DNA of 64,000 nucleotides from a bacterium (GTDB lineage: Bacteria > Patescibacteriota > Saccharimonadia > UBA4664): contig CP064960.1 in NCBI GenBank assembly GCA_016699105.1, forward strand, positions 593,034 through 657,033, written 5' to 3'. This document shows, piece by piece, positions 1 through 61,356 of the stretch (its first letter is position 1; each line of letters begins with the position of its first letter). The position numbers and the translations under genes were made by a program. A model generated the notes under the pieces. That model worked only from the letters and a program-made list of their open reading frames with translations. It had not been told where the DNA came from and made no database searches.

Positions 1-53
1 CAGCTTATGGAGCGTGTGGCGCGGTCGCTGGACTCGTTACAACCGGGGCCAGT

Positions 54-845
54 TTGAGTGCCCAGTCGGGAGAAACTGGTTTTTCTATCGTCAATGGCGC
101 CAATGGTGCTCCATATCTGACCCGGGCTAGTACCAGCGTCACAGCACTGACACCGGTGAGCTATACCTTGAGTGGTATCACCAATCCAAGTGCCAATAAC
201 ACCCAATATTGGACGCGAATTTATACCTATGCCAGCACTGATACCACAGGCGGTAGCACCGATGATGGGGTAGTAGCATGGAGTACAGCCCAGGCGATTA
301 CGGTTAGTGGCGTCATGCCGGAATCGCTTGTTTTCTGTGTCGGAACCGGCGGTACGAATTGTACTAATATGGTGGGCAGTACGGTGGATTTGGGGACATT
401 TTCGCCCATGGCTACTAATTCTGGTTTTAGCCTCATGAGTGCCAGTACCAATGCGGCCAGTGGGTATGTGATTACCCTGACTGGAACGGTGCCCACCAGT
501 GGGTTAAGTAATATTGCAGCCATGGGTACTCAGGCGTTGAATTCCAGTGGTTGTACGCCGACCTGTGCATCAAGTATTGGAAGTCCGCAATTTGGCACCA
601 ATGTCCGGTCAAACTCAGCTCCAAGCATTGGAAATGACGTAACGGGAACGGGCACTGGTACCGGTGTCGGAGGTTATAATACTGTGAATGCATTTCGATT
701 TTTTAGTGGTGACACGGTAGCTTCAGCAGGCGGTGTTACTCCCAGTAATCTGTATACCAATTCCTATATTGTGAACGTGGGTGGCGATCAGGCGGCTGGC
801 ACTTATACGGCCACTATGACCTATATTTGTACGGCGACATTTTAG
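54..845 (+). CDS. Secreted repeat-containing cell-surface protein, paralog 1 of a tandem pair (WxL-like/csc-type surface protein?)
   Basis: 263-aa ORF rich in Thr/Ser/Gly/Asn. Shares blocks with the next ORF (GANGxPYLTR, SYTL..ITNP..NT.Y..RI.TY, FCVGT..NCT, identical C-terminus GxYTATMTYICTA[ST]F). No catalytic motifs. Family assignment is inference. Confidence 0.55.
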   Translation: MSAQSGETGFSIVNGANGAPYLTRASTSVTALTPVSYTLSGITNPSANNTQYWTRIYTYASTDTTGGSTDDGVVAWSTAQAITVSGVMPESLVFCVGTGGTNCTNMVGSTVDLGTFSPMATNSGFSLMSASTNAASGYVITLTGTVPTSGLSNIAAMGTQALNSSGCTPTCASSIGSPQFGTNVRSNSAPSIGNDVTGTGTGTGVGGYNTVNAFRFFSGDTVASAGGVTPSNLYTNSYIVNVGGDQAAGTYTATMTYICTATF

Positions 846-851
846 GTTGTT

Positions 852-1886
852 ATGACTAGGAGTCGTACTCTGACACGCTGGCAGCGGGCACGTTGGGTGT
901 TGGCGACGGTTTTTTTGATGGGCTCAACTCCAGTGAGTGCGGCTGGTCTGGCACCGCGAAATGTACAAGTGGGATCAAGCGGACCGGGCGTAACTACAAG
1001 TTATGTGATCAATGCCACGACGGCAACCAGCGACCTGGTGGGTTCGATTAGCTTTGAATTTTGTGTTGATGCGGTGGGTTCGTGTGTCTTGCCATCCGGA
1101 GTTGTGACGACGGGAGCAACTTTGGGCACACAATCCGGCGCCACCGGATTTACATTGATGGCAGGTGCCAACGGTCGACCATATCTCACGCGGGTTGCCG
1201 CCAGTGTGAACGATAATGAGCCGCTATCATATACCTTGAATAACATCACCAATCCCACTGCTACCAACACGAGCTATTTTGTGCGAATTACAACGTATAC
1301 GGCTAGTGATGGCGTCACTGGACCGGTTGATAATGGGACGGTTGCACTGAGTACCGCCGAACCGGTACAACTGACTGGTGTGACGCCGGAGATATTGGTG
1401 TTTTGTGTGGGCACGACGATTGTGGGAAATTGTACAACCATCGCCGGAGATACGATCGACTTTGGAGATTTCTCGCCAACCTCAACCCGAACGGGTACCA
1501 GTGTGATGCAAGCGCAAACCAATGCGGCCGGTGGTTACGTGATCACGGTCAATGGTTCGACTTTGGCATCGGGTATAAACACCATACCAGCACTGGCTAC
1601 GCAAACGACAAGTATTATTGGAACGAGTCAGTTTGGCATGAATCTGCGGGCGAATGGGACGCCAGTTGTCGGTACCAACCCTACAGGCGTTGGTATTGGC
1701 GGAGTAGTCGCCAATTATAATACGCCCAATTTGTGGCGCTATGGCAGTGGCGAGGCGGTGGCCAGTGCGCCGTCACCGACCAACGAAAATACCTATACAT
1801 CGAGTTACATTGTAAATATTGGAGGGGCACAAGCTGCTGGTGTTTATACCGCGACGATGACGTACATTTGCACTGCAAGCTTCTAA
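852..1886 (+). CDS. Secreted repeat-containing cell-surface protein, paralog 2 (tandem duplicate of 54..845)
   Basis: 344 aa. N-terminal signal peptide (MTRSRTLTRWQRARWVLATVFLMGSTPVSAAG). Same conserved blocks and C-terminal motif as paralog 1. Confidence 0.6.
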   Translation: MTRSRTLTRWQRARWVLATVFLMGSTPVSAAGLAPRNVQVGSSGPGVTTSYVINATTATSDLVGSISFEFCVDAVGSCVLPSGVVTTGATLGTQSGATGFTLMAGANGRPYLTRVAASVNDNEPLSYTLNNITNPTATNTSYFVRITTYTASDGVTGPVDNGTVALSTAEPVQLTGVTPEILVFCVGTTIVGNCTTIAGDTIDFGDFSPTSTRTGTSVMQAQTNAAGGYVITVNGSTLASGINTIPALATQTTSIIGTSQFGMNLRANGTPVVGTNPTGVGIGGVVANYNTPNLWRYGSGEAVASAPSPTNENTYTSSYIVNIGGAQAAGVYTATMTYICTASF

Positions 1887-1898
1887 TGCTATAAAATA

Positions 1899-2907
1899 AT
1901 GATAATGAACCAATTGAGGCATGGGTTTGGCAGGAAAGTGGTGGTCGTATGGGCTGCCGTGTTGATGTTGGGTGCGCCTGCACCAGTATTGGGTGTAGCA
2001 GCAACCAACCCGGCCAATAGCGGACAAGGCTTGGAAATTTCGCCACCCGTTGTCGAATTGCAGGCTGATCCTGGTCAGACCGTGACAACAGCCATATCTA
2101 TTCGTAATGTCACTAAAGGTGCTTTGCTTGTGAAGGCCAAAACTGACGATTTTGGGGCGGGTGATGACGAATCAGGACAACCGCAGCTACTCTTAGATAC
2201 CGAAGGTCAAAGCCGATTTTCGCTGAAATATTGGGTGAGTTCGGTGACTGATTTGACGCTGGCAGCCGGTGAACTCAAGAAGAACCAGATTACGATCAAA
2301 GTGCCTAAAAATGCTGAACCGGGTGGGCACTTTGGAGTGGTGCGCTTTACGGCAGTTCCGCCTGAGCTTGAAGGCACCGGTGTGGCATTATCAGCTAGTG
2401 TGGGCACATTGATACTGGTGCGGGTCGGTGGAAATATCACAGACAAATTATCACTCGAAGAATTTTCCACCGGACGATGGAAAGGTGAGGGTCGGTCGTG
2501 ACTAAAACCGGATTCTTTGAGTACGGTCCTGTAGCTTTTGTAGTGAGACTCAAGAATGAAGGCTCAGTTCACGAGAAGCCTAAAGGTACTATCACGGTTA
2601 GCAATACGTTTGGTAAGCAAAGTAGGAAGTATCAACGTCAACGATAAAGGGCGGCAATGTATTGCCTGATAGTGTGCGACGATTTGAACAAGAACTGGCC
2701 AGCAAGCGTCTGTTTGGACGCTATGTGGCCAAGCTTGATTTGAGCTATGCGACTGATCAAAAACTGACGGCTACCAAGACGTTTTGGGTGATTCCGTGGA
2801 AACTGATTGCACTTGGTCTGATTGGTCTTGTGGCAATGGTGTGGATCGCGCGCCTGGCGATCAAACGATACAACCGGCATATTATCAATCAAGCCCGCCG
2901 CCGTTAG
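1899..2907 (+). pseudogene. DUF916-like cell-surface protein (signal peptide, N-terminal beta-rich domain, C-terminal TM anchor), split over three reading frames by two frameshifts (~2470-2505 and ~2626-2644; the second lies at a tcaacgtcaacg tandem hexamer, not a homopolymer)
   Basis: Piece 1 (1899..2501): signal peptide plus ISPPVVELQADPGQTVTTAISIRNVTKGALLVKAKTDDF, resembling the DUF916 N-terminal pattern. Piece 2 (frame +2, 2501..2647): GFFEYGPVAFVVRLKNEGSVHEKPKGTITVSN. Piece 3 (2662..2907, TTG start): C-terminal TM helix IPWKLIALGLIGLVAMVWIARLAIKRYNRH. The combined ~336 aa length fits CscA/DUF916 proteins. The frameshifts are probably sequencing artifacts. Confidence 0.45.
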
Positions 2908-2908
2908 G

Positions 2909-3850
2909 ATGCCGGTTATGGCTTTCTTAGCTCATCACCACAGTGGCCGGGTGAGGCCTCATCATCATACATCGTACGCTGCATTGACGTTTATGATTAT
3001 CTTGACTGGTGTGCTCGTGGCAGCTTCAGGATGGGCGGCGCAAGCGGCGACACCGGCAGTTAACCCGCAGAGTGGATCGGTCGGGTTATCGGGCGTCGTG
3101 CGCGGTCCAGCTCCCAGCACAGCCGCATTGATCTTGGTACCTACAAGCGGAACGAGTACGAGTGTAGTCCCAATTACCGTACGCGGAACCTGTCCGGCAA
3201 ATACCTTTGTGAGTGTTATGAAAAATGGGGTTTTTGGTGGAGCCACGACGTGCCAAGAAGATGGCACATTTAGCCTGTTGGTGGACTTGTTTGCCGGCCG
3301 TAATGAGTTGGTCGCCAAAGTGAGCGATGCACTTGGTCAGTATGGCCCCGATTCGGCGACGGTTGTGATTACCTACAATGCGCCAAATGTGGGAGCGGGT
3401 AGTAGCGCGTCGCAGCGACAATTATTTTTGAATATGGCGGTGACAGTTGTTGGTGGTAATCCGGAAGAAGTTATCCGGCGGACAATTTCAATAGTAGGCG
3501 GATCGGCTCCGTATGCAGTTAGTTGGGACTACGGCGATGGAGAAACGGGCTTGGTGACAGCGACAAGTGAAGGTGATGTCACTAATGGTCATGCCTACGA
3601 TCGGCCTGGTTATTACACTGTGGTCGTAAAGGTGACTGATAGCCGGGGAAACTCAGCTTACTTACAGTTCATCACAATCGTTAACGGCGCGTTAACGACA
3701 GCAGGAGGGGCTTCTGCGACTAATACGGACACAGCAGGTTATGTACAATTAGCTTGGCCGCTTTTGGGATTTGCATTGTTGTTGGTTTTAGCATTCTGGC
3801 TGGGGGAGTGGCGGGAATCACGTAAGTTGGCTGCCGCGGCAGCTGTATAA
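2909..3850 (+). CDS. PKD-domain surface protein with C-terminal transmembrane anchor
   Basis: PKD signature VSWDYGDGETG...VTNGHAYDRPGYYTVVVKVTDSRGNSA. Hydrophobic C-terminus AWPLLGFALLLVLAFWLGEW. The ATG at 2909 lies right after the previous gene's stop; the ORF-track start at 2822 overlaps that gene. Confidence 0.6.
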   Translation: MPVMAFLAHHHSGRVRPHHHTSYAALTFMIILTGVLVAASGWAAQAATPAVNPQSGSVGLSGVVRGPAPSTAALILVPTSGTSTSVVPITVRGTCPANTFVSVMKNGVFGGATTCQEDGTFSLLVDLFAGRNELVAKVSDALGQYGPDSATVVITYNAPNVGAGSSASQRQLFLNMAVTVVGGNPEEVIRRTISIVGGSAPYAVSWDYGDGETGLVTATSEGDVTNGHAYDRPGYYTVVVKVTDSRGNSAYLQFITIVNGALTTAGGASATNTDTAGYVQLAWPLLGFALLLVLAFWLGEWRESRKLAAAAAV

Positions 3851-3954
3851 CCGTTAATACGTGTATGTAGACAAATACATACAAGGCGAAAAAATCATTT
3901 AACTACGCATGCTTCCAGTATAGGTAGGACTTAATTTGGTGGCAATAAATCTGG

Positions 3955-3960
3955 TATAAT
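3955..3960 (+). promoter_or_regulatory. Extended -10 promoter element (TGgTATAAT) for parA, only ~11 nt from the start codon (leaderless-type)
   Basis: Sequence ctgGTATAATgagtgctagatATG. The TGn extension is directly upstream of a perfect TATAAT. There is no SD sequence between the -10 and the ATG at 3972. Confidence 0.35.
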
Positions 3961-3971
3961 GAGTGCTAGAT

Positions 3972-4781
3972 ATGAGGGAAAAGGTGGCTCAGCAGACGAA
4001 AGTGTTGGCGTTAGCTAACCAGAAGGGTGGTGTGGGTAAAACCACAACCACAATTAATCTGGGTGCTTATTTGGCAGCTGCCGGACAGCGGGTGCTGATT
4101 GTCGATTTAGATCCTCAGGGCAATACTTCGAGCGGTTTGGGGCTTGTGACGAGTAAACTGCATGGTGACTTGTATGATGTGTTGATGGAAGATGTGGCGA
4201 TTGCGGCTGTAGTACAGGAGACCATCACTAAAGGATTGGCGGTAGTGCCAGCAAGTCCAATACTAGCAGCGGCAGAGGTGGAGATGGTGGCAGTACCTCA
4301 GCGTGAGTTTAAGCTTAAAAAAGCACTCGAAAACATAAAAGGAGAGTATGACTACATACTGATCGACTGTCCACCAAGTTTGGGGATACTCACTGTCAAT
4401 GGTTTGGTGGCAGCTGATGAAATTATTATTCCGGTTCAAGCTGAATTTTATGCGCTGGAAGGCTTGGGTCATTTGGTACAGACCGTGCAGCGCGTGCGGC
4501 GGGGCTTGAATCCGAAGCTCGGGCTTTTGGGAGTATTACTTACCATGCACAATGGCCGGACGACTTTGAGCACCCAGGTTCATGAGGAAGTCCGGCGGCA
4601 TTTCCCAGATAAACTATTTGAGACAGTTATACCGCGTAATGTGCGGCTGGCTGAAGCGCCTAGTCACGGCGTAAGCATAATGCAGTATGATGGGTGGAGT
4701 AAGGGTGCGCGCAGTTATAAAGCGCTGGCCAAAGAAGTGCAAAAAAGGGTGAAACAAGCAGAAAGGGTGACAACAACATGA
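3972..4781 (+). CDS. parA: Chromosome partitioning ATPase ParA/Soj
   Basis: Deviant Walker A NQKGGVGKTTT, LIVDLDPQGN, CPPSLG motifs. ATG at 3972 preferred over the GTG at 3963 of the ORF track. Confidence 0.9.
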   Translation: MREKVAQQTKVLALANQKGGVGKTTTTINLGAYLAAAGQRVLIVDLDPQGNTSSGLGLVTSKLHGDLYDVLMEDVAIAAVVQETITKGLAVVPASPILAAAEVEMVAVPQREFKLKKALENIKGEYDYILIDCPPSLGILTVNGLVAADEIIIPVQAEFYALEGLGHLVQTVQRVRRGLNPKLGLLGVLLTMHNGRTTLSTQVHEEVRRHFPDKLFETVIPRNVRLAEAPSHGVSIMQYDGWSKGARSYKALAKEVQKRVKQAERVTTT

Positions 4782-5728
4782 GTGAAATACGCAAACGCGG
4801 TTTAGGACGAGGTTTTGATTCGCTTATTCCTGAAGGAATGGTTGAAACTGAGTTTGACGTGACGGCACCGGTAGACGAGAGTGGTGCCAGAGTTAGTGGC
4901 GATACCATTCAACAACTTGACCCCTTTTTACTCGATCCGAATCCGCATCAGCCGCGTAAAAATTTCGAAGAAGCGGCTCTCGAAGCTTTGGCTGCAAGTA
5001 TTCGAGTACACGGGATATTGCAGCCGTTAGTTGCTACGCGGAAAGGTGACCGGTTCGAGCTGATTGCGGGTGAGCGCCGGTTGCGAGCCGCTCGACTAGC
5101 AGGTCTGACACGTGTTCCAGTGATTTTGCGGACGTTTGATGAACAGGAAAAACTCGAGCTAGCCTTAATTGAGAATATTCAGCGGGCTGAACTTAACCCC
5201 ATCGAATTGGCGACAGCTTATCGCAAACTAGCCGACGAATTTAATCAAACTTATGATGATATCGGTCAAAAAATTGGTAAGAGTTCATCGGCTATCGCTA
5301 ATACAGTGCGCCTACTCAACCTGAGCGCCGATGCTAAGCGCGCGATTGTTGACGGTATCATTTCAGAGGCACACGGGCGTGTGATCTTGTCGTTGGAGGA
5401 CGAGGATAAACGGGCCGAAATTTTGCGACTGATTCTCAAGTATAAATGGACCCAAAAACAAGCTGACGAATTTGCGCGAGGTTACCGCGGTCCCAGAGGA
5501 TCGAAGATGCTGGCGCAAGCTCGATTGAATGAGATAGAGGCTTGGCAGACTGATTTGGAAAAGTATCTTAATGCTTCGGTCAAACAAACAAGATTAGCTC
5601 GCGGTAAAGGCAAAATCATTATTGAGTACAATTCCGCTCAGGAACTTGACCGGATTTACCGGCTCATCCGTCACAATAGTGTAGCGTCAAAGCACCACGG
5701 CAGCGACGGTATCGTCAAACAGACGTGA
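4778..5728 (+). CDS. parB: Chromosome partitioning protein ParB/Spo0J
   Basis: ParB box GILQPLVATRKGDRFELIAGERRLRAARLAGLTRVPV with HTH. ATGA overlap with the parA stop. Confidence 0.9.
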   Translation: MSEIRKRGLGRGFDSLIPEGMVETEFDVTAPVDESGARVSGDTIQQLDPFLLDPNPHQPRKNFEEAALEALAASIRVHGILQPLVATRKGDRFELIAGERRLRAARLAGLTRVPVILRTFDEQEKLELALIENIQRAELNPIELATAYRKLADEFNQTYDDIGQKIGKSSSAIANTVRLLNLSADAKRAIVDGIISEAHGRVILSLEDEDKRAEILRLILKYKWTQKQADEFARGYRGPRGSKMLAQARLNEIEAWQTDLEKYLNASVKQTRLARGKGKIIIEYNSAQELDRIYRLIRHNSVASKHHGSDGIVKQT

Positions 5729-5744
5729 ATCTATAGATTTCAGT

Positions 5745-6538
5745 TTATAAAACTTTAACTTGATCGAGTGGCAAGAGTCGCAATACGGCATTGCCGATAA
5801 TGTAGCTTGAAGGTAGTTGACCCCATTCGCGGGAGTCAAATGAGGCGCCGGGTATGCGGTTGTCTCCGACCACGAAGACATTGCCTTTTTGGACGGTTTC
5901 ATCAACATTTCCCTGAGTACTTGTATCAGTACTTTCGTAGCTCGTATCGGGATCATAACCATCGGGGTGCTTGTCGTTGTAGACGGTTATTTTACCTTCT
6001 TTGACAACTACTCGGTCGCCAGGGACACCAATAACGCGTTTGACAAAAACTTCACTGGGTTTCTTGGGATAATGGAAGACGATTATCTGCCCAGCTTTGG
6101 GGATGTATGCGCTATCTTTATTGAAAGTTCTTTGGATCAAAGATGAAGTGTAGCCAATCTTGGAAACAATTAAATAATCGGCGTCGTGCAAGGTAGTGGA
6201 CATGCTACTTCCCATGACGTGATAGGCTTGAAAGACAAAAAATGAAGGACAAACACGACAGCCATCGGGAACAAGAACCATGAGGCGATAATGCCCATGA
6301 CATGCCAAAATTTACCAGCAACGTTGGTTAGTGTCCCAGACGCCGTTTCGACATCGGTGGTAGCCTGAATACCAGGACCTTGTACATCAGAAAGCGTTTG
6401 AGCCAGCATTGGTGACATGTCACTCGATGACGGAGTGGGTGGCGCCGGACGGACGGGTGCTGGGCTACCCTGGGCCGGTATAATTAAGCCGTCAGGACCG
6501 ACAACAGGCTTGCGAGATGGGTTAGTAGGTGAATCCAT
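5745..6538 (-). CDS. lepB: Signal peptidase I (LepB) with a 1-nt frameshift at an A6/T6 homopolymer (~6236-6241) separating the N-terminal TM segment from the catalytic domain
   Basis: Catalytic frame has FFVFQAYHVMGSSMSTTLHD (S box), VIGVPGDRV, GDNRIPGASFDSREWG (box E). The upstream TM helix GIIASWFLFPMAVVFVLHF sits in the adjacent frame (the 3' end of ORF 6170..6943). Adding one T restores ...VLHFFVFQAYHVMGSSM, matching B. subtilis SipS topology. The N-terminal Pro-rich extension and exact start are uncertain. Confidence 0.75.
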
Positions 6539-6597
6539 ATACAGTATGAGTATAGGGGGGTAGCCGGGGAGCACAAGGGTGGTTATACTAGTAGGTA

Positions 6598-8139
6598 ATG
6601 GATACGTTTCATGTGAATCGGCGGCGGCAGCTCGATGGCCCCCAACCAAGAAACCGCCTGGTACGACCTGTACCCGACGCGCCTGCCCCTGATAGAGTGG
6701 TGGCTTCGACGGTTGAGCTATCTGAAAATGAATCAACTTTGCCGGTTGTTGACGACAAGCTGTTTGAGTATCGCCGCCGACATAAGCCAAAGAAGCTCCA
6801 AGGCAAAGGCTGGAAAATCGCCAAATGGGTAGTGCTTGTGTTGCTTGTCGGAGGCTTGGTGGCTGGTGGTTGGTTTGGTTGGCGCGCCTGGCAAGCGACC
6901 AAAAACATCTTCGGAAATGGCGGCGGTTCAGGAGCTTTGGCATTACAAGACTCCTTTGATCTGACCCAACTCAAAGGTGAGGGGGACGGTCGCGTCAATA
7001 TTTTGCTTTTGGGCATTGGTGGTGAAGGCCACGAAGGGCCAAACTTATCCGATACCATCATGGTTGTTAGTATTGATCCCAAAACGAAAAATACAGCAAT
7101 GTTGTCGATCCCGCGTGACTTGTATGTGAAATTACCCGGTGTCGGTCAATATGGCACTCAATATGGCAAAGTAAATGCAGCGAACGTTTATGGCGGTGCC
7201 GAATATGCGGCCAAAGTAATTCAGACCGTTATTGGAGTGCCACTACACTACTACGTCGTGATGGACTTTTCCGGATTTAAACAAGCGGTTGACGCGGTCG
7301 GCGGCATTGATATTGATGTTCCTGAGGCTATTAATGATCCCGATTATCCATGTGACAATGGACGATCGGTCTGCGGGTTTAAGTTGGCAGCCGGAAAACA
7401 ACATATGAATGGCACGATCGCGCTCAAGTATGCCCGATCTCGCAAGAGCACCAGTGATTTTGACCGGGCAGCCCGGCAACAGCAGGTGATTGGGGCGCTG
7501 CGCGATAAGAGTTTGCAGCTATCAACACTCACGAATCCCGTTAAATTGATCGGCTTGATTGAAGCTCTTGGTACCCATGTGAAATCAAATTTGCAGACCA
7601 ATGAGATTAAAAAATTGGCGGCTATTGCAAAAGATGTCGATATGTCGAAAGTCAGCAAAGAAGTGCTCGATACAGATAGGCCGGAATCCTTGCTTCAGGG
7701 GGGAGTAAATATCATACCTGAGGCAGGTTATATCGAGGTACCAAAGTTGGGCACATTTAGCTACGGTGATATTCATGACTACGTTAAAAATATTTTTGCT
7801 GACGGATATATCCTGGAAGAAAATGCAATTGTTGAAGTCCAAAATGGATCTGGAATTCCAGGTTTGGCGGGGGCTGTCACGAAAAGCTTAAAAAGTGCAC
7901 ATTATAATCTGACAAATGCTTCGAATGCTAATGACTATTTCGCTAAAACGGTGATATATGATTACTCTGGTGGCAAGATGCCTTATACGCTAAACTATCT
8001 CGAGAATCGATTTAATGTAAAAGCGCAGAGTGCATCGGTTCCGGTAATGTCACCGGCTGCTGACGGCTCGATTCCGTCGGCACCTCAAATAAGGATTATA
8101 CTTGGCAGTGACTATTCTACAAACGCGTCTACAAATTAG
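6598..8139 (+). CDS. LCP family (LytR-CpsA-Psr) cell-envelope polymer transferase with C-terminal LytR_C domain
   Basis: N-terminal TM (WVVLVLLVGGLVAGGWFGW). Core RVNILLLGIGGEG...SDTIMVVSIDPKTKNTAMLSIPRDLYV...VIGVPLHYYVVMDFSGFKQAVDAVGGIDIDV. Confidence 0.8.
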   Translation: MDTFHVNRRRQLDGPQPRNRLVRPVPDAPAPDRVVASTVELSENESTLPVVDDKLFEYRRRHKPKKLQGKGWKIAKWVVLVLLVGGLVAGGWFGWRAWQATKNIFGNGGGSGALALQDSFDLTQLKGEGDGRVNILLLGIGGEGHEGPNLSDTIMVVSIDPKTKNTAMLSIPRDLYVKLPGVGQYGTQYGKVNAANVYGGAEYAAKVIQTVIGVPLHYYVVMDFSGFKQAVDAVGGIDIDVPEAINDPDYPCDNGRSVCGFKLAAGKQHMNGTIALKYARSRKSTSDFDRAARQQQVIGALRDKSLQLSTLTNPVKLIGLIEALGTHVKSNLQTNEIKKLAAIAKDVDMSKVSKEVLDTDRPESLLQGGVNIIPEAGYIEVPKLGTFSYGDIHDYVKNIFADGYILEENAIVEVQNGSGIPGLAGAVTKSLKSAHYNLTNASNANDYFAKTVIYDYSGGKMPYTLNYLENRFNVKAQSASVPVMSPAADGSIPSAPQIRIILGSDYSTNASTN

Positions 8140-8152
8140 GAACCAACATATT

Positions 8153-8689
8153 GTGCAGATTGCATGGGCGTTGGCTGTCGGTGGTGTTGTCTTGGTACTT
8201 GCTCCCAAACAAGGATGGTGGTGGTTAGCGTTAGCCATAGTAACGGGAATTGAACTATTAGCCGCTTGGGGTAGAAGACAGATAGTATCGCAGTTAATGA
8301 TACCGGTGGTAATGGCCGCGTGTGTCGTCCTTGTGATGACACTTGTACCGCGATTAGCTAGTCAGATATCGTTAGCGTTAGTATATATTGTTTGGCGATG
8401 GTGGTGGTCAACAGGTGAAGCTGGTCGGGCAAATTTACCAAATTTGTTAGTGTTACAGACTATGATTAGTTTAGCTGTTTTTTTAATGGCAGTAGTATGG
8501 CGTGTTCCTTCATGGTTTGCAGAATTGCTAATGTGGGGACTTTCATACACTACGGTACTAACAGTTATGAGTACTCGAAGGGAACAAAGTGCAAGATTGC
8601 TAGCAGCTAGTTGGGCACTTATTGTTACTCAGCTGACTTGGTTGCTCCAGATATGGTTGTTTACCTACACTGTTCAAGGGGGTATGTGA
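8153..8689 (+). CDS. Polytopic membrane protein, unknown function
   Basis: Four or five hydrophobic helices, Trp-rich. GTG start at 8153 preceded by AGGAA (10-nt spacing). The ORF-track start at 8102 overlaps the LCP gene. Confidence 0.45.
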   Translation: MQIAWALAVGGVVLVLAPKQGWWWLALAIVTGIELLAAWGRRQIVSQLMIPVVMAACVVLVMTLVPRLASQISLALVYIVWRWWWSTGEAGRANLPNLLVLQTMISLAVFLMAVVWRVPSWFAELLMWGLSYTTVLTVMSTRREQSARLLAASWALIVTQLTWLLQIWLFTYTVQGGM

Positions 8690-8862
8690 TGATACCTCAA
8701 GGAGTATTGGTTATAACGGCAATGGGATATTGTTTTGGCTCAATTTACATGTCGGCTCGAGCAGGCAGCTTGAGTCGCGGACGGTTGATGGAATTTCTCG
8801 CAATTGGGATCGTTATAATTATCATGGTTGTCTCAGGTACTTCTTGGAAAGGTGCCATATAA
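8689..8862 (+). CDS. Small (57-aa) membrane protein, unknown function
   Basis: ATG overlaps the upstream stop (ATGTGATG). AGGGGG RBS. Two hydrophobic helices. Confidence 0.35.
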   Translation: MIPQGVLVITAMGYCFGSIYMSARAGSLSRGRLMEFLAIGIVIIIMVVSGTSWKGAI

Positions 8863-8905
8863 TAGAATTGGTTAAGGATAACAGCTATTACTATAGTGAG
8901 GACGT

Positions 8906-10117
8906 ATGACAGATCGATTTGAACCATGGGAACATGAAAAGCGTGATCAATCGCCTCGTGCGGTTGATGTGGATACTGAAAAACCGGTTCAGCAGCAACG
9001 ATGGCATTTCCGAGCCATTCGCAATGCAGGCGTCATGGTGCTGGTGGGTGCATTGGCCGGAGCTGGCGGTGCTTATGGATATACTCATTATTTGGCAGCT
9101 TCGATTCCGGTAGATCGCAAACAATTGATTATTGAAGAGAGCTCGGCGGTGATTGATGTTGCTACGCAGCTTTCACCCAGCGTGGTAAGTATTACCTCCA
9201 AAACTGTCGCCCGGGGATTTTTTGGATACTCGCAGGAAGTTGAAGGGGCCGGTACGGGTATGGTTCTGACGGCCGATGGACTCATACTGACGAATCGGCA
9301 TGTGGTTGATGATACGACGGCTACTTATACTGTCGTCATGAACGACGGTAAAACGTACCCGGCGACGGTGGTCTCGCGTGACACCAAAAATGATGTAGCG
9401 TTCGTGCGCGTTGAAGCCAAAGATCTGACGCCTGTGAATATCGGAGATTCCGGTAAATTGAAAGTGGGACAACAAGTGGTGGCAATCGGAAACGCCTTGG
9501 GGCAATTCCAAAACTCTGTCACCGAAGGTATTATTTCGGGCGTATCGCGAGGAATTACCGCTGGTTCGGGGTCGGCTTATAGTGGCATGACCGAAGAACT
9601 ATCCAATCTACTGCAGACCGATGCGGCGATCAACTCCGGCAATTCCGGTGGTCCGCTGGTCGATCTGGAAGGTCAAGTGATCGGCATGAATACGGCGGTG
9701 GCGGGATCGGGAGCGCAGAATATTGGATTTGCCATACCGATCAATGACATTAAACCGTTAATTGAAAGTGTGAAATCAAAGGGACGGATCGTACGGCCGT
9801 ATCTGGGAGTGCGCTATGTTGCTTTGACGCGCCAAGTGGCTACCTTAAATAACCTAACAGTGTCTGATGGCGCTTGGATTCAAGCTTCAGGAGACGCTAA
9901 CCCAGGGGTTGTAAGTGGTTCACCGGCCGAAAAAGCCGGAGTCAAAGAGGGCGACATCATAACCAAGATTGGCGATGATACGGTTGATGCAACGCATAGT
10001 TTGCAGTCTCTCATCGGTAAATACAAAACTGGTGATAAGGTGAAGCTGACTATAATTCGCGATAGTGCGACAGTTACGGTTGAAGCAACATTGGAAGATG
10101 CGCCCGCCGGGAGCTAA
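8906..10117 (+). CDS. htrA: HtrA/DegP-family trypsin-like serine protease with C-terminal PDZ domain
   Basis: Catalytic triad context GLILTNRHVV, NDVAFVRV, NSGNSGGPLVD. N-terminal TM. PDZ domain near the C-terminus. GAGGA RBS. Confidence 0.85.
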   Translation: MTDRFEPWEHEKRDQSPRAVDVDTEKPVQQQRWHFRAIRNAGVMVLVGALAGAGGAYGYTHYLAASIPVDRKQLIIEESSAVIDVATQLSPSVVSITSKTVARGFFGYSQEVEGAGTGMVLTADGLILTNRHVVDDTTATYTVVMNDGKTYPATVVSRDTKNDVAFVRVEAKDLTPVNIGDSGKLKVGQQVVAIGNALGQFQNSVTEGIISGVSRGITAGSGSAYSGMTEELSNLLQTDAAINSGNSGGPLVDLEGQVIGMNTAVAGSGAQNIGFAIPINDIKPLIESVKSKGRIVRPYLGVRYVALTRQVATLNNLTVSDGAWIQASGDANPGVVSGSPAEKAGVKEGDIITKIGDDTVDATHSLQSLIGKYKTGDKVKLTIIRDSATVTVEATLEDAPAGS

Positions 10118-10122
10118 TTATT

Positions 10123-10941
10123 TTAGCGAAATCCGAGGATGAAATAGCCTTGTTCGAAAGCTTTGAGTCGAGATTTGGCGGCTAGTGCCATGAGGTGGTC
10201 GTGTTGCCATGGGTCACATTCGGTAAAAACATGGCCATGAGGAGCCAAATGCTGCGGCAATTCGTTTAAAAACCGGCGGTAGAGATCGAGACCATCGGTG
10301 CCGCCAAAGAGCGCGATTGCTGGTTCTTTGGTGACTTCCAACATGAGATCGGCGTCGGTCTGAAGATAGGGTAAATTGGTGACGACGGTATCAAATTTGC
10401 CGGTGACTTCATGCCATAAGTCTGACTCAATAAAGCAGATATCAACACCATGTTTGCGCGCATTTTGACGAGCTACAGCTAGCTCAGTATGAGTGATGTC
10501 GGTGGCAGTTATATGGAGATCTGGCCGATTTTTGGCGATGGCGATGGCGATGGCGCCAGAACCGGTGCCAATATCTATGAGGCGGCCATTTTGGGGAGTG
10601 TATTTGATAGCCCATTCAACCATTTGCTCGGTTTCAACGCGGGGAGTCAGTACATCTGGGGTGATAATAAAATCGAGACCATAAAATTCGCGGGTGCCAG
10701 TCAAGTGGACGACGGGTGTATGGTTGAGCCTTTGATCAATGAGATGTTGGAATTGTGATAGTTGGTCGGGAGTAAGGACGTAGTCGTCATGGGCATGGAT
10801 CCAGGTACGCGGTTGAGCTAAGACATGAGCCAAGAGTAATTCGGCATCGAGGCGGGCACCAGCGATCGGTTTAGCTTCGAGCTGGATAATGGCTTCAGCT
10901 AAGCTGTGCTTGAGTGAGTTTTGAGCAGTTGGTAAAGGCAT
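10123..10941 (-). CDS. prmC: Release-factor glutamine N5-methyltransferase PrmC/HemK
   Basis: SAM motif IDIGTGSGAIAIA and catalytic NLPY (NPPY variant). Sits downstream of prfA. The Met at 10941 gives an 11-nt gap to the SpoU gene; the longer ORF start at 11076 overlaps it. Confidence 0.8.
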   Translation of the reverse strand: MPLPTAQNSLKHSLAEAIIQLEAKPIAGARLDAELLLAHVLAQPRTWIHAHDDYVLTPDQLSQFQHLIDQRLNHTPVVHLTGTREFYGLDFIITPDVLTPRVETEQMVEWAIKYTPQNGRLIDIGTGSGAIAIAIAKNRPDLHITATDITHTELAVARQNARKHGVDICFIESDLWHEVTGKFDTVVTNLPYLQTDADLMLEVTKEPAIALFGGTDGLDLYRRFLNELPQHLAPHGHVFTECDPWQHDHLMALAAKSRLKAFEQGYFILGFR

Positions 10942-10952
10942 AAGATAAAGAA

Positions 10953-11771
10953 TTAATTTAAAGTTTGTTGCGATTGTCGTTGACGTACCACTTCGTACGC
11001 CAGAACGACGGTAGCAGCGGCTACGTTGAGCGAATCGGCAAGTCCGAGCATAGGCAAGCGAACCGGTTGGTCGCAAGCATCTTGCCAGGTGTCGGATAGC
11101 CCGTATTGTTCACTGCCCAAAATGATAGCGGTGGGTTTCGTGAGGTCAGGTGTGGTGTACGATTGTTTGGCTTGGACAATGGCGGCTACAGTTTGAACAT
11201 GGTTTTTCTTCAAGAATGTGATGACTTCGCCGGTAGCGGCAATCACAGTAGGTACTTTAAACATAACACCAGTAGAGGCGCGTACCACATTGGGGTTAAA
11301 CAAATCGGTTACGGGGTCACACACGATGACAGCGTCGGCGCCGGTGGCATCTGCAGACCTGAGAATTGTGCCAAGGTTGCCAGGTTTTTCAATTGATTCG
11401 GCGACAATGATAAAGGGATTGGCAGAAAGTACTAGCTTATCTAAGCTCGTGTGCCATTGGCGACCGACGGCTAAGAGTCCCTCGGGCTTGTCGCGATAGG
11501 CAGCTTTGATGAGGGCGGTGGAACTGAGCTGGATGACTTGGGCGCCAGTCGCGGCAGCTCGAGCAACTAAGGCCGGTTCATTGGTGCCCAGATACAATTC
11601 GGGACAATAGTACAACGTTAGTAGCGGAAAATCACTATCGAGCGCGCGGGTAATTGCGCGGTAGCCTTCAATTAAAAATAATTCCTGGTCGTCGCGTTCG
11701 GAGCGTTTGCGCAAGGCATACAAATTTTTTATAACCGGATTGGCGGTACTGGTGATGACGGGAGTATTCAT
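10953..11771 (-). CDS. SpoU/TrmH-family RNA 2'-O-methyltransferase
   Basis: SPOUT motifs: ...[28 protein letters not shown]..., [14 protein letters not shown]. Start overlaps the prfA stop by 4 nt. Confidence 0.8.
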
Positions 11772-12847
11772 TGGCCGGCTTGTTCGAGTTTGAGTCGTAA
11801 GTCTTCAGCCTGTAAAGCATCGAGCATGTCCGCAATATTGCCGAGCATATAACCGGGCAAACCGTGTTGGGTACGGCCGATACGATGGTCTGTGACCCGG
11901 TCTTGAGGGTAGTTGTAGGTGCGGATTTTTTCACTGCGGTCACCGGTGCCAATTTGTGACAAGCGGGCTTCGCGGCCAGCGCGCTCGGCTTCTTCACGTT
12001 GGATAGCCAGTAGCCGGGAGCGTAAGACATTCATGGCTTTGAGCTTATTTTTGAGCTGTGACTTTTCGTCTTGGCAGGTGACTACAAGACCCGAGGGGAG
12101 GTGAGTGATGCGGACCGCAGAATCGGTGGTGTTAACGCTTTGACCGCCGTGTCCGGAGCTACGATAGACGTCAATGCGCAAGTCGGCATCATTGATCTCG
12201 ATATCGGTTTCTTCGGCTTCGGCTAACACGGCCATTGTCACAGTCGAGGTGTGGATGCGACCGCCGGATTCGGTTTCGGGGACACGTTGCACGCGATGAA
12301 CACCGGATTCATATTTGAGCAGACCGTAGGCGCCCGCACCTTTGACTTCAAAAATAATTTCTTTGTAACCACCTACATCACTGGGTGATTCGCTGATAAG
12401 TTCGATACGCCAGCCGGGTTTGGTCTCGACAAACCGGTTATACATGCGATAGAGTTCACCAGCAAACAATGAAGCTTCGTCGCCGCCCGCACCAGCGCGG
12501 ATTTCAATAATGGCGGTTTTGGCGTCGGCGGGATCTTTGGGGACCAAGGCAATGCGCAGTAAATCGTTGATACGATTCAACTCTTCTTCAAATTCCGGTA
12601 TTTCGGCTTTAGCCAGTTCACCAAGTTCTGGATCGGTGGCCATTTCGTGAGACTGGGCTAAATGATCAGCTGTCTGGGCGCGTTGGTCATAAAGGGCCAA
12701 GAGGGGAGCTATTTCGGCCTGGCGTTTTGCCAATGTAATCATCTGAGGAGTACCCAAAATCGCCGGCTCGGTCAGCTGGGTGGCTAGACTGGCGGCTTCG
12801 GCTCGAAATTTAGCTTCGGTGGGATCGGTTGATGGATTCATAACCAT
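11768..12847 (-). CDS. prfA: Peptide chain release factor 1
   Basis: GGQ motif ([23 protein letters not shown]) and RF1-type P-x-T tripeptide region ([14 protein letters not shown]). Confidence 0.9.
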
Positions 12848-59065: not shown

Positions 59066-61356
59066 TTAGCCTATCAAGGGAAGTTGTTTTGCAATCGGTA
59101 TCGTAAACGAGAATTTGCTTCCCTTACCTTCTGCTGATGTTGCCCAAATGCGTCCATTATGACTCTCGACTAAGCTTTTGACGATATACAATCCTAAACC
59201 CGTTCCGCCAGCCTGGACACTCAAAGGGTTGTAGATTCGGCCAAATTTTGTAAATAGACGATTGATTTGAGATTTGTTGATTCCCACACCGTGGTCAGAA
59301 ATAGTTGTAAGGAGATTATCCCCTGGACTTTGCACGTAATATCAACTTCAGTACCGTTGGGTGAATATTTGATGGCGTTGTCAATGAGATTGAGTATTAT
59401 TTGATGAAGTCTGGTTTCATCTGCTAAAACGAGTGGTAATCGGCTACGTCGACGAATATTGATGAGTACTTGCTTAGCAGCGCCTTTGGCTGCAAGTTCG
59501 GCGACAACTTCATTGACGACAGCGTCCATTGAGATTGGCGCAATGGTGAGGCTGATTTTGCCAGATTCGATATATGTTGCATCCATAAGATCTTCGACCA
59601 AATCGATCATACGTTGATTGCTTTGGTAGACTCGGCTCAAATAATGAAATTGTTTGGCACTGAGTTCGCCGAAGTCTTGCTTAAGCGTCATTGATAGAAA
59701 TCCTTTGATCGCAGTGAGCGGCGTGCGTAGCTCGTGAGATACTATTGAAATAAAATCTGATTTAATTTCTTCTACTTCACGGTCTTTGGTGGTATCACGG
59801 ATAATAGCTATGCCGGAGGTGACTACATCCGAATCGTCAAAAATGGGCGAATAGCTAATTTCAGTCCAAATGCGGTTACCAAGTCGATTTTCGATAAGCT
59901 GTTCACTATTTGTGATAGTCGTGCCTGTTTTTAGTACTTGCTCAAGGGTTGGTATGCCGGCGTTGGCTGTTTCTGGGCCGACTGTTTTGATCACCTTTCC
60001 GAATGCCTTGCCAATGGCATCGGTTGCTTGATATCCAGTAATAGTTGTCGATGCCGGGTTGAAGCCAACAATGGTCCCCTTCTGGTCGAAAATAACTATA
60101 CCTTCTTCGGTAAATCGAAAGACTGCTTCCCAGCGTTCACGACGGGCATTGACGTCGTTGTACAGGGTGGCATTCTCGCAAATGACGGCTAAACGTGTGG
60201 CTGCTAAACGTAATAGCCGTAAGTCATGGTCATCATAGGTATGCTCACGACTAACGATAATTACACCTAAGCTTTTGGAATGATGAATAATTGGCAGCGC
60301 AAGACTTGCTTTTGAAGTATCGATGGTTATGATCGGTTTACGACCAGCGAAAGCTTGAGTAACTACATGGTGCTGGTTCAACGAAAATGTACTTGGTAAA
60401 TGTGAAGTTTGATTGTGGTTTGACGCTAGCTGTAGTAGTTGTTGGTTTGGCTCATAAATGTAAATTCCGACTGATGTTGAATCAAGTAAATTGGCGATTT
60501 TTTGGACATACTTTTGATAGATACTATCTAGATTGAAACCTACTATAGCTGAAAGTTCGGCCAGCTGTGACAACTCACGCAAGTGTCGTTGCGCTTTCGT
60601 AGCCATTGCTCCCGCTTCGATGGTTTTGTCGGTGAGGGCAGTGACATCTCTAGCGGCTGCCATCGCGCCAATAACTTCATTATTTATGACGACTGGGCCA
60701 AATGACACTTGGATATGGCGTCCGGTGTCGATTATATCCAGATACAGAACTGATCGTTGTCCGAGCATGACTCGTTCTAGTATTTCCCGAACTTCAGTGT
60801 CAAAGGCAACTTGATGTGCCGAAGTTGTTCGCGTAAAAATAGGTAATCCTACAGGTGACTGATTGATGTCAAATACAATTTGCCATTCTGTATTCGCCTC
60901 GACGACTATACCTTGTTTATCAACCATAACTACGCCATCTTGGAGGTGGTTTATCATTGTTGTCAGTTTTAACTTTTCCAAGTAAAGCGGCGTAATATCG
61001 TGAACAGCAATGACTACAGTTTTTTGTTGCTCATCAGAACTCATGTATTGGCTCATTTGGGCTTCATAGTGTAAACCTGGTGATTGTGTTTGAGAAAAAG
61101 AACAACTACTTACTTGGCCCTTGAACGCTAGGTCTATACATTTTTCGGCCGCTTTGATATCGATTTTTAGATCGGCATTTTGCGAGATACTAGCGAAATC
61201 TGGGTGTTTTCTTAGTCCAGAAGTAGTTAGATCCCATATCTGGCAGGCAGCTGGATTGGCATAAACAACTTGTTTGTGAACATCAACGATCAGTATGCCG
61301 TCGCGAAGCGTACTGGCAAGGGATTGATCGGACAAATTAAGCTTGTTTTTAGCCAT
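59066..61356 (-). CDS. Sensor histidine kinase with PAS/GAF-type sensory domains, split by a single-base deletion in a G/C-run (59310-59313)
   Basis: H-box SHELRTPLTAIKGF and N-box LNLIDNAIKYSP. The G1/G2 boxes (DHGVGI, GGTGLGLYIVKSLVESHNG) are in the downstream ORF. Adding one G gives KVQGDNLLTTISDHGVGI. Confidence 0.8.

Follow-up and report, generated by a model that had tools for sequence, protein, structure and literature searches.

The window analysed here, a 64-kb stretch of a Saccharimonadia genome (contig CP064960.1, positions 593,034 to 657,033), opens with four near-abutting genes, all on the + strand (gaps of 6, 12 and 1-10 nt; window 1-3850). Our analysis indicates that positions 3-3850 are, with high probability, the 3' half of a pam operon, encoding the Pam pili that bacteria of the candidate phyla radiation (CPR) assemble by donor-strand exchange. 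The Pam system was described in Ca. Mycosynbacter amalyticus, a member of the same class Saccharimonadia (Troman et al., bioRxiv 10.64898/2026.03.03.709456). Its pili are thin, usher-less and restricted to CPR bacteria, and filament structures of PamA and PamB have been obtained by cryo-electron microscopy (cryo-EM; PDB 25PZ, 25QA). Each pilin consists of two domains, of which the C-terminal one is a truncated immunoglobulin (Ig)-like domain that is completed by the linker strand of the preceding subunit; this donated linker and the site that it occupies are the most conserved parts of the protein. PamC and PamD resemble the FimC/PapD chaperones and carry a C-terminal transmembrane (TM) helix. 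PamT is predicted to form the tip and PamR to act as terminator and anchor; no trans-envelope machinery was reported (Troman et al.).

Family assignment of the operon proteins

The four genes encode two two-domain Pam pilins (gene 1, 3..845; gene 2, 852..1886, 344 aa), a membrane-anchored two-domain Ig-like chaperone of the PamC/PamD type (gene 3, 1899..2907) and PamR, an RbmA-like terminator/anchor of 310 aa (gene 4, 2918..3850). Families were named with NCBIfam release 20. Gene 2 matches the model of the Pam pilin C-terminal domain (NF058581, CPR_Pam_pilin_C) with 167.6 bits (E=1.8e-49) and full-length gene 1 with 130 bits (E=7.3e-38), the cutoff being 55. Gene 4 matches NF058578 (CPR_pilus_PamR) over positions 2-291 of 297 (292.5 bits, E=2.6e-87).

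The 5' end of gene 1 is cut at the window start. Its frame is open from base 3 and its translation contains no start codon inside the window; the TTG at position 54, where an earlier note on this DNA had placed the start, is not the start of the gene. The complete gene, of 350 aa, is found at positions 8232-9284 of L001, a metagenomic contig that is 99.57% identical to window 1-11882 (an overlap of 11.9 kb). The same contig shows that the cluster is larger than the four genes first noted and extends upstream beyond the window start with two further genes (L001 6161-8193). The first, just outside the window (L001 6161-6922), encodes a PamT-like single-domain protein of 253 aa with the C-terminal end GTYTGGMSIVATGTF, which matches NF058579 (PamT) with 239.2 bits (E=4e-71). 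The second, between the PamT-like gene and gene 1, encodes a third pilin paralog of 389 aa with the C-terminal end GAYSATFTWICTGTF, which scores 81.3 bits against NF058581. As read from L001, the order of the complete operon is PamT, 389-aa pilin, gene 1, gene 2, gene 3 and gene 4, with gene 2 in the last-pilin slot, immediately 5' of the chaperone gene.

Conservation of the operon

The order PamT, one to four pilins, chaperone and PamR recurs in most of 79 species-representative Saccharimonadia genomes. In 64 of these 79 loci the first gene of the operon is PamT-like, and in most of the 79 the PamR gene lies 3' of the chaperone gene. Copy number of the paralogous family, a comparison proposed in the earlier note, accordingly varies from one to four two-domain pilins per operon. 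Variants of the layout were also seen: one locus (L006) has two chaperone genes (7825-8787 and 11078-12040), as PamC and PamD in M. amalyticus, another (L032) carries the chaperone and PamR genes on the opposite strand, 5 kb away, and in a third (L042) the order of the operon is rearranged. More than 965 close homologs of gene 2 were retrieved, all from Saccharimonadia or from sources without a name, and the pilin family as a whole comprises 1503 clusters at 50% identity. Every database homolog that we saw carries the label 'hypothetical protein'.

The pilins

The earlier note had described genes 1 and 2 as non-enzymatic secreted tandem paralogs, and this description holds. The two proteins are 53% identical over 281 aa (BLASTP, E=2e-90) and share the C-terminus AAG[TV]YTATMTYICTA[TS]F (C-terminal ends AAGTYTATMTYICTATF in gene 1 and AAGVYTATMTYICTASF in gene 2), so that both end in CTA[ST]F, without a hydrophobic tail. 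Pfam returned neither a WxL match nor any other meaningful family for these two proteins and 41 relatives, and neither the pilin nor the chaperone alignment found a match in profile searches of the PDB.

Gene 2 encodes a signal peptide (about aa 1-31), an N-terminal beta-sandwich (aa 36-170, nt 957-1361), a conserved linker that we presume to be the donor strand (about aa 171-187, nt 1362-1412) and a C-terminal acceptor domain (aa 188-344). The N-terminal domain is confidently modelled by AlphaFold2 (AF2) as a monomer and finds only generic Ig-like matches (YcnI, Gram-positive pilin domains, cohesins). The C-terminal domain has a predicted local distance difference test score (pLDDT) below 50; such a low-confidence model is consistent with an incomplete fold that requires a donor strand, although it is no proof of one. 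Conservation across 161 pilins peaks in the linker (175-187), in two core segments (221-233 and 257-266) and in the terminal strand (329-343), which is what a constraint on the donated strand and its groove would predict. Five cysteines, an odd number, are conserved in the same 161 pilins (C71, C78, C185, C194 and C340 in gene 2 numbering). C185 lies in or adjoins the presumed donated linker strand and C340 lies in the terminal strand; one possibility is that an inter-subunit disulfide locks the donor strand.

PamR

Gene 4 had been noted as an anchored protein with a PKD domain and a His-rich N-terminus, and each of these features was recovered. It comprises two Ig-like domains, one Glucodextran_B-like and one PKD (Pfam Glucodextran_B, E=4.7e-7; PKD_4, E=1.3e-8), and a C-terminal TM helix is seen in the sequence (about nt 3749-3811). 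The N-terminal region (about nt 2918-3046) holds the His-rich stretch and the signal peptide; placed upstream of a hydrophobic stretch, the His-rich segment reads as the n-region of that signal peptide. The most likely start is ATG 2918, with ATG 2909 as an alternative. The start called by the open reading frame (ORF) finder, TTG 2822, is unlikely: it would make gene 4 overlap gene 3. Both NCBIfam and the preprint place gene 4 in the RbmA-like family. It shares tandem Ig/FnIII-type domains with RbmA, the biofilm matrix scaffold of Vibrio cholerae, from which it differs by its C-terminal TM helix and its PKD-type domain.

The chaperone and its kinship with WxLIP

The intact protein of gene 3, taken from L001, was modelled by AF2 with a pLDDT of 82.7 as two Ig-like beta-sandwich domains followed by a long C-terminal helix. 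Its best match in the PDB by Foldseek is the CFA/I chaperone CfaA (E=1.5e-10), followed at E<=4e-7 by CsuC, FimC, Caf1M, SafB, DraB, FaeE, YadV and EcpB. Matches to RbmA were also obtained with this model, not with gene 4. The TM helix WKLIALGLIGLVAMVWIARLAI lies at 2797-2862 and the stop codon at 2905-2907. At the sequence level, PapD_N and PapD_C match none of 48 chaperone homologs at E<=1.

WxLIP, the WxL-interacting protein that is the membrane-anchored partner in the WxL/Csc (cell-surface complex) clusters of Bacilli and is known from Gram-positive gut bacteria, is also among the best structural matches of the gene 3 model. These clusters combine small and large WxL proteins with a WxLIP of DUF916-DUF3324-TM architecture (Siezen 2006; Brinster 2007; Galloway-Pena 2015; Hassan & Williamson 2022/2023; PDB 9i1y, 9i25). 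The earlier note had taken gene 3 for a DUF916-type protein with a TM anchor. The anchor is present and the relationship is real, albeit remote, whereas the Pfam evidence is sub-threshold and the gene occupies three frames in the window. The model PF06030 (WxLIP_PGBD, formerly DUF916) scores 18.5 bits on gene 3, below its cutoff of 27.3, with the DUF916-like domain at about nt 2028-2429. It matches 39 of 48 gene 3 homologs, all below threshold, and PF11797 (DUF3324) was never reported for gene 3 or for any of these 48 homologs. As controls we used 29 genuine WxL loci, pulled from metagenomes via the conserved WxLIP motif NQIDKxxxYFDLK (a motif scan for WxLIP in viral contigs had found nothing), and there all 11 Firmicute WxLIP match both PF06030 and PF11797.

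Profile comparison by hhalign gave a clearer signal. A diverse Pam chaperone profile aligns with WxLIP at 96.4% probability (E=1.3e-9) over 210 columns covering both domains, whereas eight of nine control pairs of distinct families remained at or below 5.4%. The exception was WxLIP versus PamR (80%, E=1.3e-5), in which the alignment runs over the last beta-strands and the TM helix. This match is probably TM-driven; alternatively, the last domain of PamR may be related to DUF3324. Searches with hidden Markov models (HMMs) were reciprocal: among 1575 ORFs of CPR loci the top ten matches of the WxLIP HMM are all Pam chaperones, and among 263 Firmicute ORFs the top fifteen matches of the Pam chaperone HMM are all WxLIP (best E=6e-10). 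Since the sub-threshold PF06030 matches, the hhalign probability and the reciprocal HMM ranks agree, we conclude that gene 3 is a true, remote homolog of WxLIP. The relationship appears to be a modest new observation, because the preprint mentions neither WxL nor DUF916 nor Firmicutes and our full-text literature search found no publication linking WxL with Saccharibacteria or donor-strand exchange in this way.

One Firmicute metagenomic locus (L089) has two WxLIP genes (4118-5227 and 6095-7147). The Pam chaperone HMM has its best Firmicute hit (E=6e-10) in the copy at 4118-5227, which lacks the NQIDK motif and could be a bridging sequence between the two groups of chaperones.

The pilins are not detectably WxL domains

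The earlier note read the locus as a csc-like cluster and the paralogs as possibly a divergent branch of the WxL-like fold. On such a reading the paralogs would be WxL-like proteins bound non-covalently to the wall with a DUF916-type partner, forming a static adhesion platform and no pilus. Three observations favour such a complex: the remote WxLIP homology of gene 3; a parallel cluster logic, in which a single-domain protein is accompanied by multi-domain proteins sharing its C-terminal domain and by a TM-anchored partner with two Ig-like domains; and a C-terminal motif specifically common to both. The WxL domain (PF13731; solved structure 9i25_A) is characterized by dual Trp-x-Leu motifs. 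We found that the regular expression Y..[TSE][LIMFV].W.L, derived from WxL proteins, is present in 131 of 142 WxL tails and, when relaxed (W to W/Y/F; L to L/I/V/C/M), in 133 of the 169 pilin tails of the Pam loci but in none of the 1406 other ORFs of the same loci. The resemblance of the paralogs' C-terminus to the WxL motif with Tyr in place of Trp, pointed out in the earlier note, is thus borne out. Only a nine-residue C-terminal strand motif, Y..T[LM]T[YW].[IL], is common to both; among the copies seen, the 389-aa paralog alone has Trp (W-I-C) where WxL proteins carry their tryptophan.

The remaining tests argue against WxL domains in the pilins. PF13731 matches none of 43 members of the pilin family at E<=10, whereas it recognizes all 17 small Firmicute WxL proteins used as a positive control; conversely, no Pam model of NCBIfam matches these 17 proteins. 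In hhalign the pilin C-terminal domain and the WxL domain were aligned with only 0.4-2.2% probability over four increasingly diverse alignments, enlarged by 64 locus sequences, 150 representatives at 50% identity and 120 extra WxL proteins. The strict terminal motif Y..T.xWxL is absent from all 169 locus pilins and all 150 family representatives. The WxL HMM does rank pilins above background (Mann-Whitney p=4e-49). We reject this ranking as evidence of homology: PamR and the chaperones are also elevated, which makes the effect partly one of composition, and a search in the reverse direction, with the HMM built on the C-terminal domain of the pilins, selects WxLIP (E about 0.003, in the DUF3324 region) and does not recover WxL proteins. 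Judged from these sequence comparisons, the Pam pilins are not detectably WxL domains, and they belong instead to the family NF058581.

A WxL cluster has been defined by at least one WxLIP and at least two WxL proteins (Hassan, Chaudhuri & Williamson 2023). In the present locus we detected no WxL domain, and no protein passes the Pfam thresholds for WxLIP. Neither a Trp-x-Leu motif nor an LPXTG partner accompanies the operon: an LPXTG-type sorting signal, which the earlier note suggested looking for, does not occur in any frame of the window (sortase was not searched genome-wide). Moreover, WxL proteins have been described as peptidoglycan-bound platforms in a different phylum, not as filaments, whereas proteins orthologous to those studied here have been imaged as filaments by cryo-EM (Troman et al.). 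We therefore consider a csc/WxL-type adhesion complex improbable; the features that define the two systems make the locus a pam operon and not a WxL cluster.

It is nevertheless tempting to ask how the two systems are related. Both possess a homologous chaperone-like partner, alignable over both Ig-like domains and equipped in each case with a signal peptide and a C-terminal TM helix; both combine a single-domain protein with multi-domain proteins sharing one C-terminal domain, and their terminal strand motifs are similar. A published AlphaFold complex predicts that a strand of WxLIP fills a gap in the WxL beta-sandwich. The predicted WxLIP-WxL complex looks like donor-strand complementation in all but name. 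In Pap and Fim systems, the G1 strands of chaperones complement the pilins. We tentatively propose, as an idea that has somewhat less than an even chance of being right, that the Pam pili of CPR bacteria and the WxL/Csc clusters of Bacilli are two branches of one ancient monoderm system, in which PamC/PamD and WxLIP would cap an incomplete beta-sandwich by donor-strand complementation. With the same reserve, the C-terminal domain of Pam pilins would correspond to the WxL domain, PamT to the small WxL proteins and the two-domain pilins to the large ones. The chaperone half of this proposal is supported; the pilin/WxL half is a hypothesis that draws on the cluster grammar and on the nine-residue motif of the terminal strand. 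The preprint finds no homologs of Pam pilins outside CPR and raises the origin of the system as a question. If true, our proposal would contradict the statement that there are no relatives outside CPR, and WxL proteins would be chaperoned, and possibly polymerized, by strand exchange instead of merely sitting on peptidoglycan.

Frameshifts in the chaperone gene

In the window, gene 3 is not a single ORF and is distributed over three frames (1899..2501, about 2490..2620 and about 2647..2907); the reading path follows the first frame, then the second, returns briefly to the first and continues in the third to the stop. Relative to L001, in which the gene is intact (321-337 aa), three single-base indels are present: a G lost from a G run at 2488 and an extra A at both 2619 and 2646. 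These three indels, which fall inside 160 nt of one gene, could be real and indicate a decaying operon in a strain unable to assemble the pilus. However, all three are homopolymer-length changes, and five more single-base indels occur in the next 8 kb (5737, 6236, 6565, 8677 and 10124). One of these truncates the signal peptidase gene lepB (ORF 5745..6308; 187 aa instead of the 264 aa of L001), and a second gene, which ends near 8689, also appears to be broken by an indel. The otherwise 99.6% identical L001, an Illumina/SPAdes-style contig, carries every affected gene intact. As seven of the eight indels are homopolymer-length differences, scattered across the 11.9-kb overlap and also breaking lepB, the frameshifts of gene 3 are most likely assembly errors and not pseudogenization, and decay of the operon seems highly improbable. 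The assembly of the window thus seems to carry uncorrected homopolymer errors, and other split ORFs in it should be treated with caution.

Proposed pilus assembly and comparison with known systems

Family membership, the conservation of the operon, the fold and architecture of the chaperone and the conservation pattern of the pilins are direct observations. That these genes encode no more than a generic set of beta-rich adhesins or S-layer-like surface proteins, without an ordered assembly pathway, is hardly credible: the generic Ig-like matches of the N-terminal domain of gene 2 would suit such a set, but the strong family-specific HMM matches, the conserved order of tip, pilins, chaperone and anchor and the chaperone fold of gene 3 all speak against it.

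Several points do weigh against the identification of the locus as a pam operon. PamR scores just under its equivalog cutoff of 300 bits and PamT 0.8 bit below its own cutoff of 240, gene 3 matches no NCBIfam model and is frameshifted three times in this assembly, and there is a single chaperone gene where Ca. Mycosynbacter amalyticus has two (PamC and PamD). In addition, the pilus of this organism is predicted here from its genes, and its likeness to that of M. amalyticus rests on NCBIfam models and on the descriptions given in the paper. The source is itself a preprint, the assembly model of which was built on AlphaFold complexes (Troman et al.).

The likeness to the system of M. amalyticus is nonetheless extensive. 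The pilin C-terminal domain, PamT and PamR belong to the same families (NF058581, NF058579 and NF058578), the chaperones have the same TM-anchored architecture, and both systems are encoded by a co-oriented operon without usher and without sortase. The two also differ in other respects than chaperone number. The operon studied here has three pilins of similar size (344-389 aa), and no subunit of the size of the 55-kDa PamA was found in the stretch seen, the pilins of M. amalyticus being PamA, PamB and PamE. Furthermore, parAB follows the operon here, whereas the paper stresses an ATP-synthase neighbourhood.

By analogy with the published Pam system, from which we infer the following steps, all operon products would be exported by Sec. 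The chaperone encoded by gene 3 would stay tethered to the cytoplasmic membrane via its C-terminal helix and would lend one of its strands to each pilin, transiently closing the open Ig-like fold of the pilin's C-terminal domain. The next pilin would then displace this chaperone strand with its conserved linker strand (about aa 171-187 in gene 2), and the exchange would yield a linear fibre with PamT at the tip. Growth would stop when the N-terminal strand of PamR enters the last pilin, and the C-terminal TM helix of PamR would anchor the fibre. Through this fibre the epibiont probably first touches its host bacterium. The reading of the locus as an adhesion or host-attachment module of a CPR-like genome, proposed in the earlier note, is upheld in the sense of a surface appendage, and the genome is indeed one of Saccharimonadia.

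The parallel with the chaperone-usher pili (Pap/Fim, CFA/I class 5, archaic Csu and Caf1) is also close. Gene 3 has the same PapD-like two-domain fold (Foldseek E-values of 1e-10 to 1e-7), and incomplete Ig-like subunits joined by donor-strand exchange occur in the Pam system as well (Troman et al.). In contrast to these pili, Pam pili are made without an outer membrane and without an usher, by a chaperone that is anchored in the membrane, and the strand donated by their two-domain pilins is an internal linker instead of an N-terminal extension. No usher-like gene or Pfam match was found in the operon or among its neighbours.

Genomic neighbourhood

A scan for promoters and terminators gave nothing beyond shuffled expectation. 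Directly 3' of PamR lie parA (3963..4781) and parB (4778..5728), and the PamR-parA junction recurs in several related genomes (L004, L007, L014, L016 and L017). GC skew is positive in all 2-kb bins of the window. A PAS/GAF histidine kinase gene is located on the - strand at 59221-61356; its HATPase_c match spans just profile positions 2-33 of 111, which may be another frameshift or truncation artefact.

Significance

The cluster as a whole is not new: it is a described donor-strand-exchange pilus system. Hundreds of Saccharimonadia genomes have this operon, of which the locus is a further copy, and curated HMMs already name it. Its practical value lies in the correct annotation of proteins that are still labelled 'hypothetical protein'. 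Beyond this, the homology of the chaperones ties together two poorly understood surface systems, Pam and WxL/Csc. It bears on the long-standing question of what WxL/Csc clusters do in Enterococcus, Listeria and Lactobacillus and suggests a concrete experiment.

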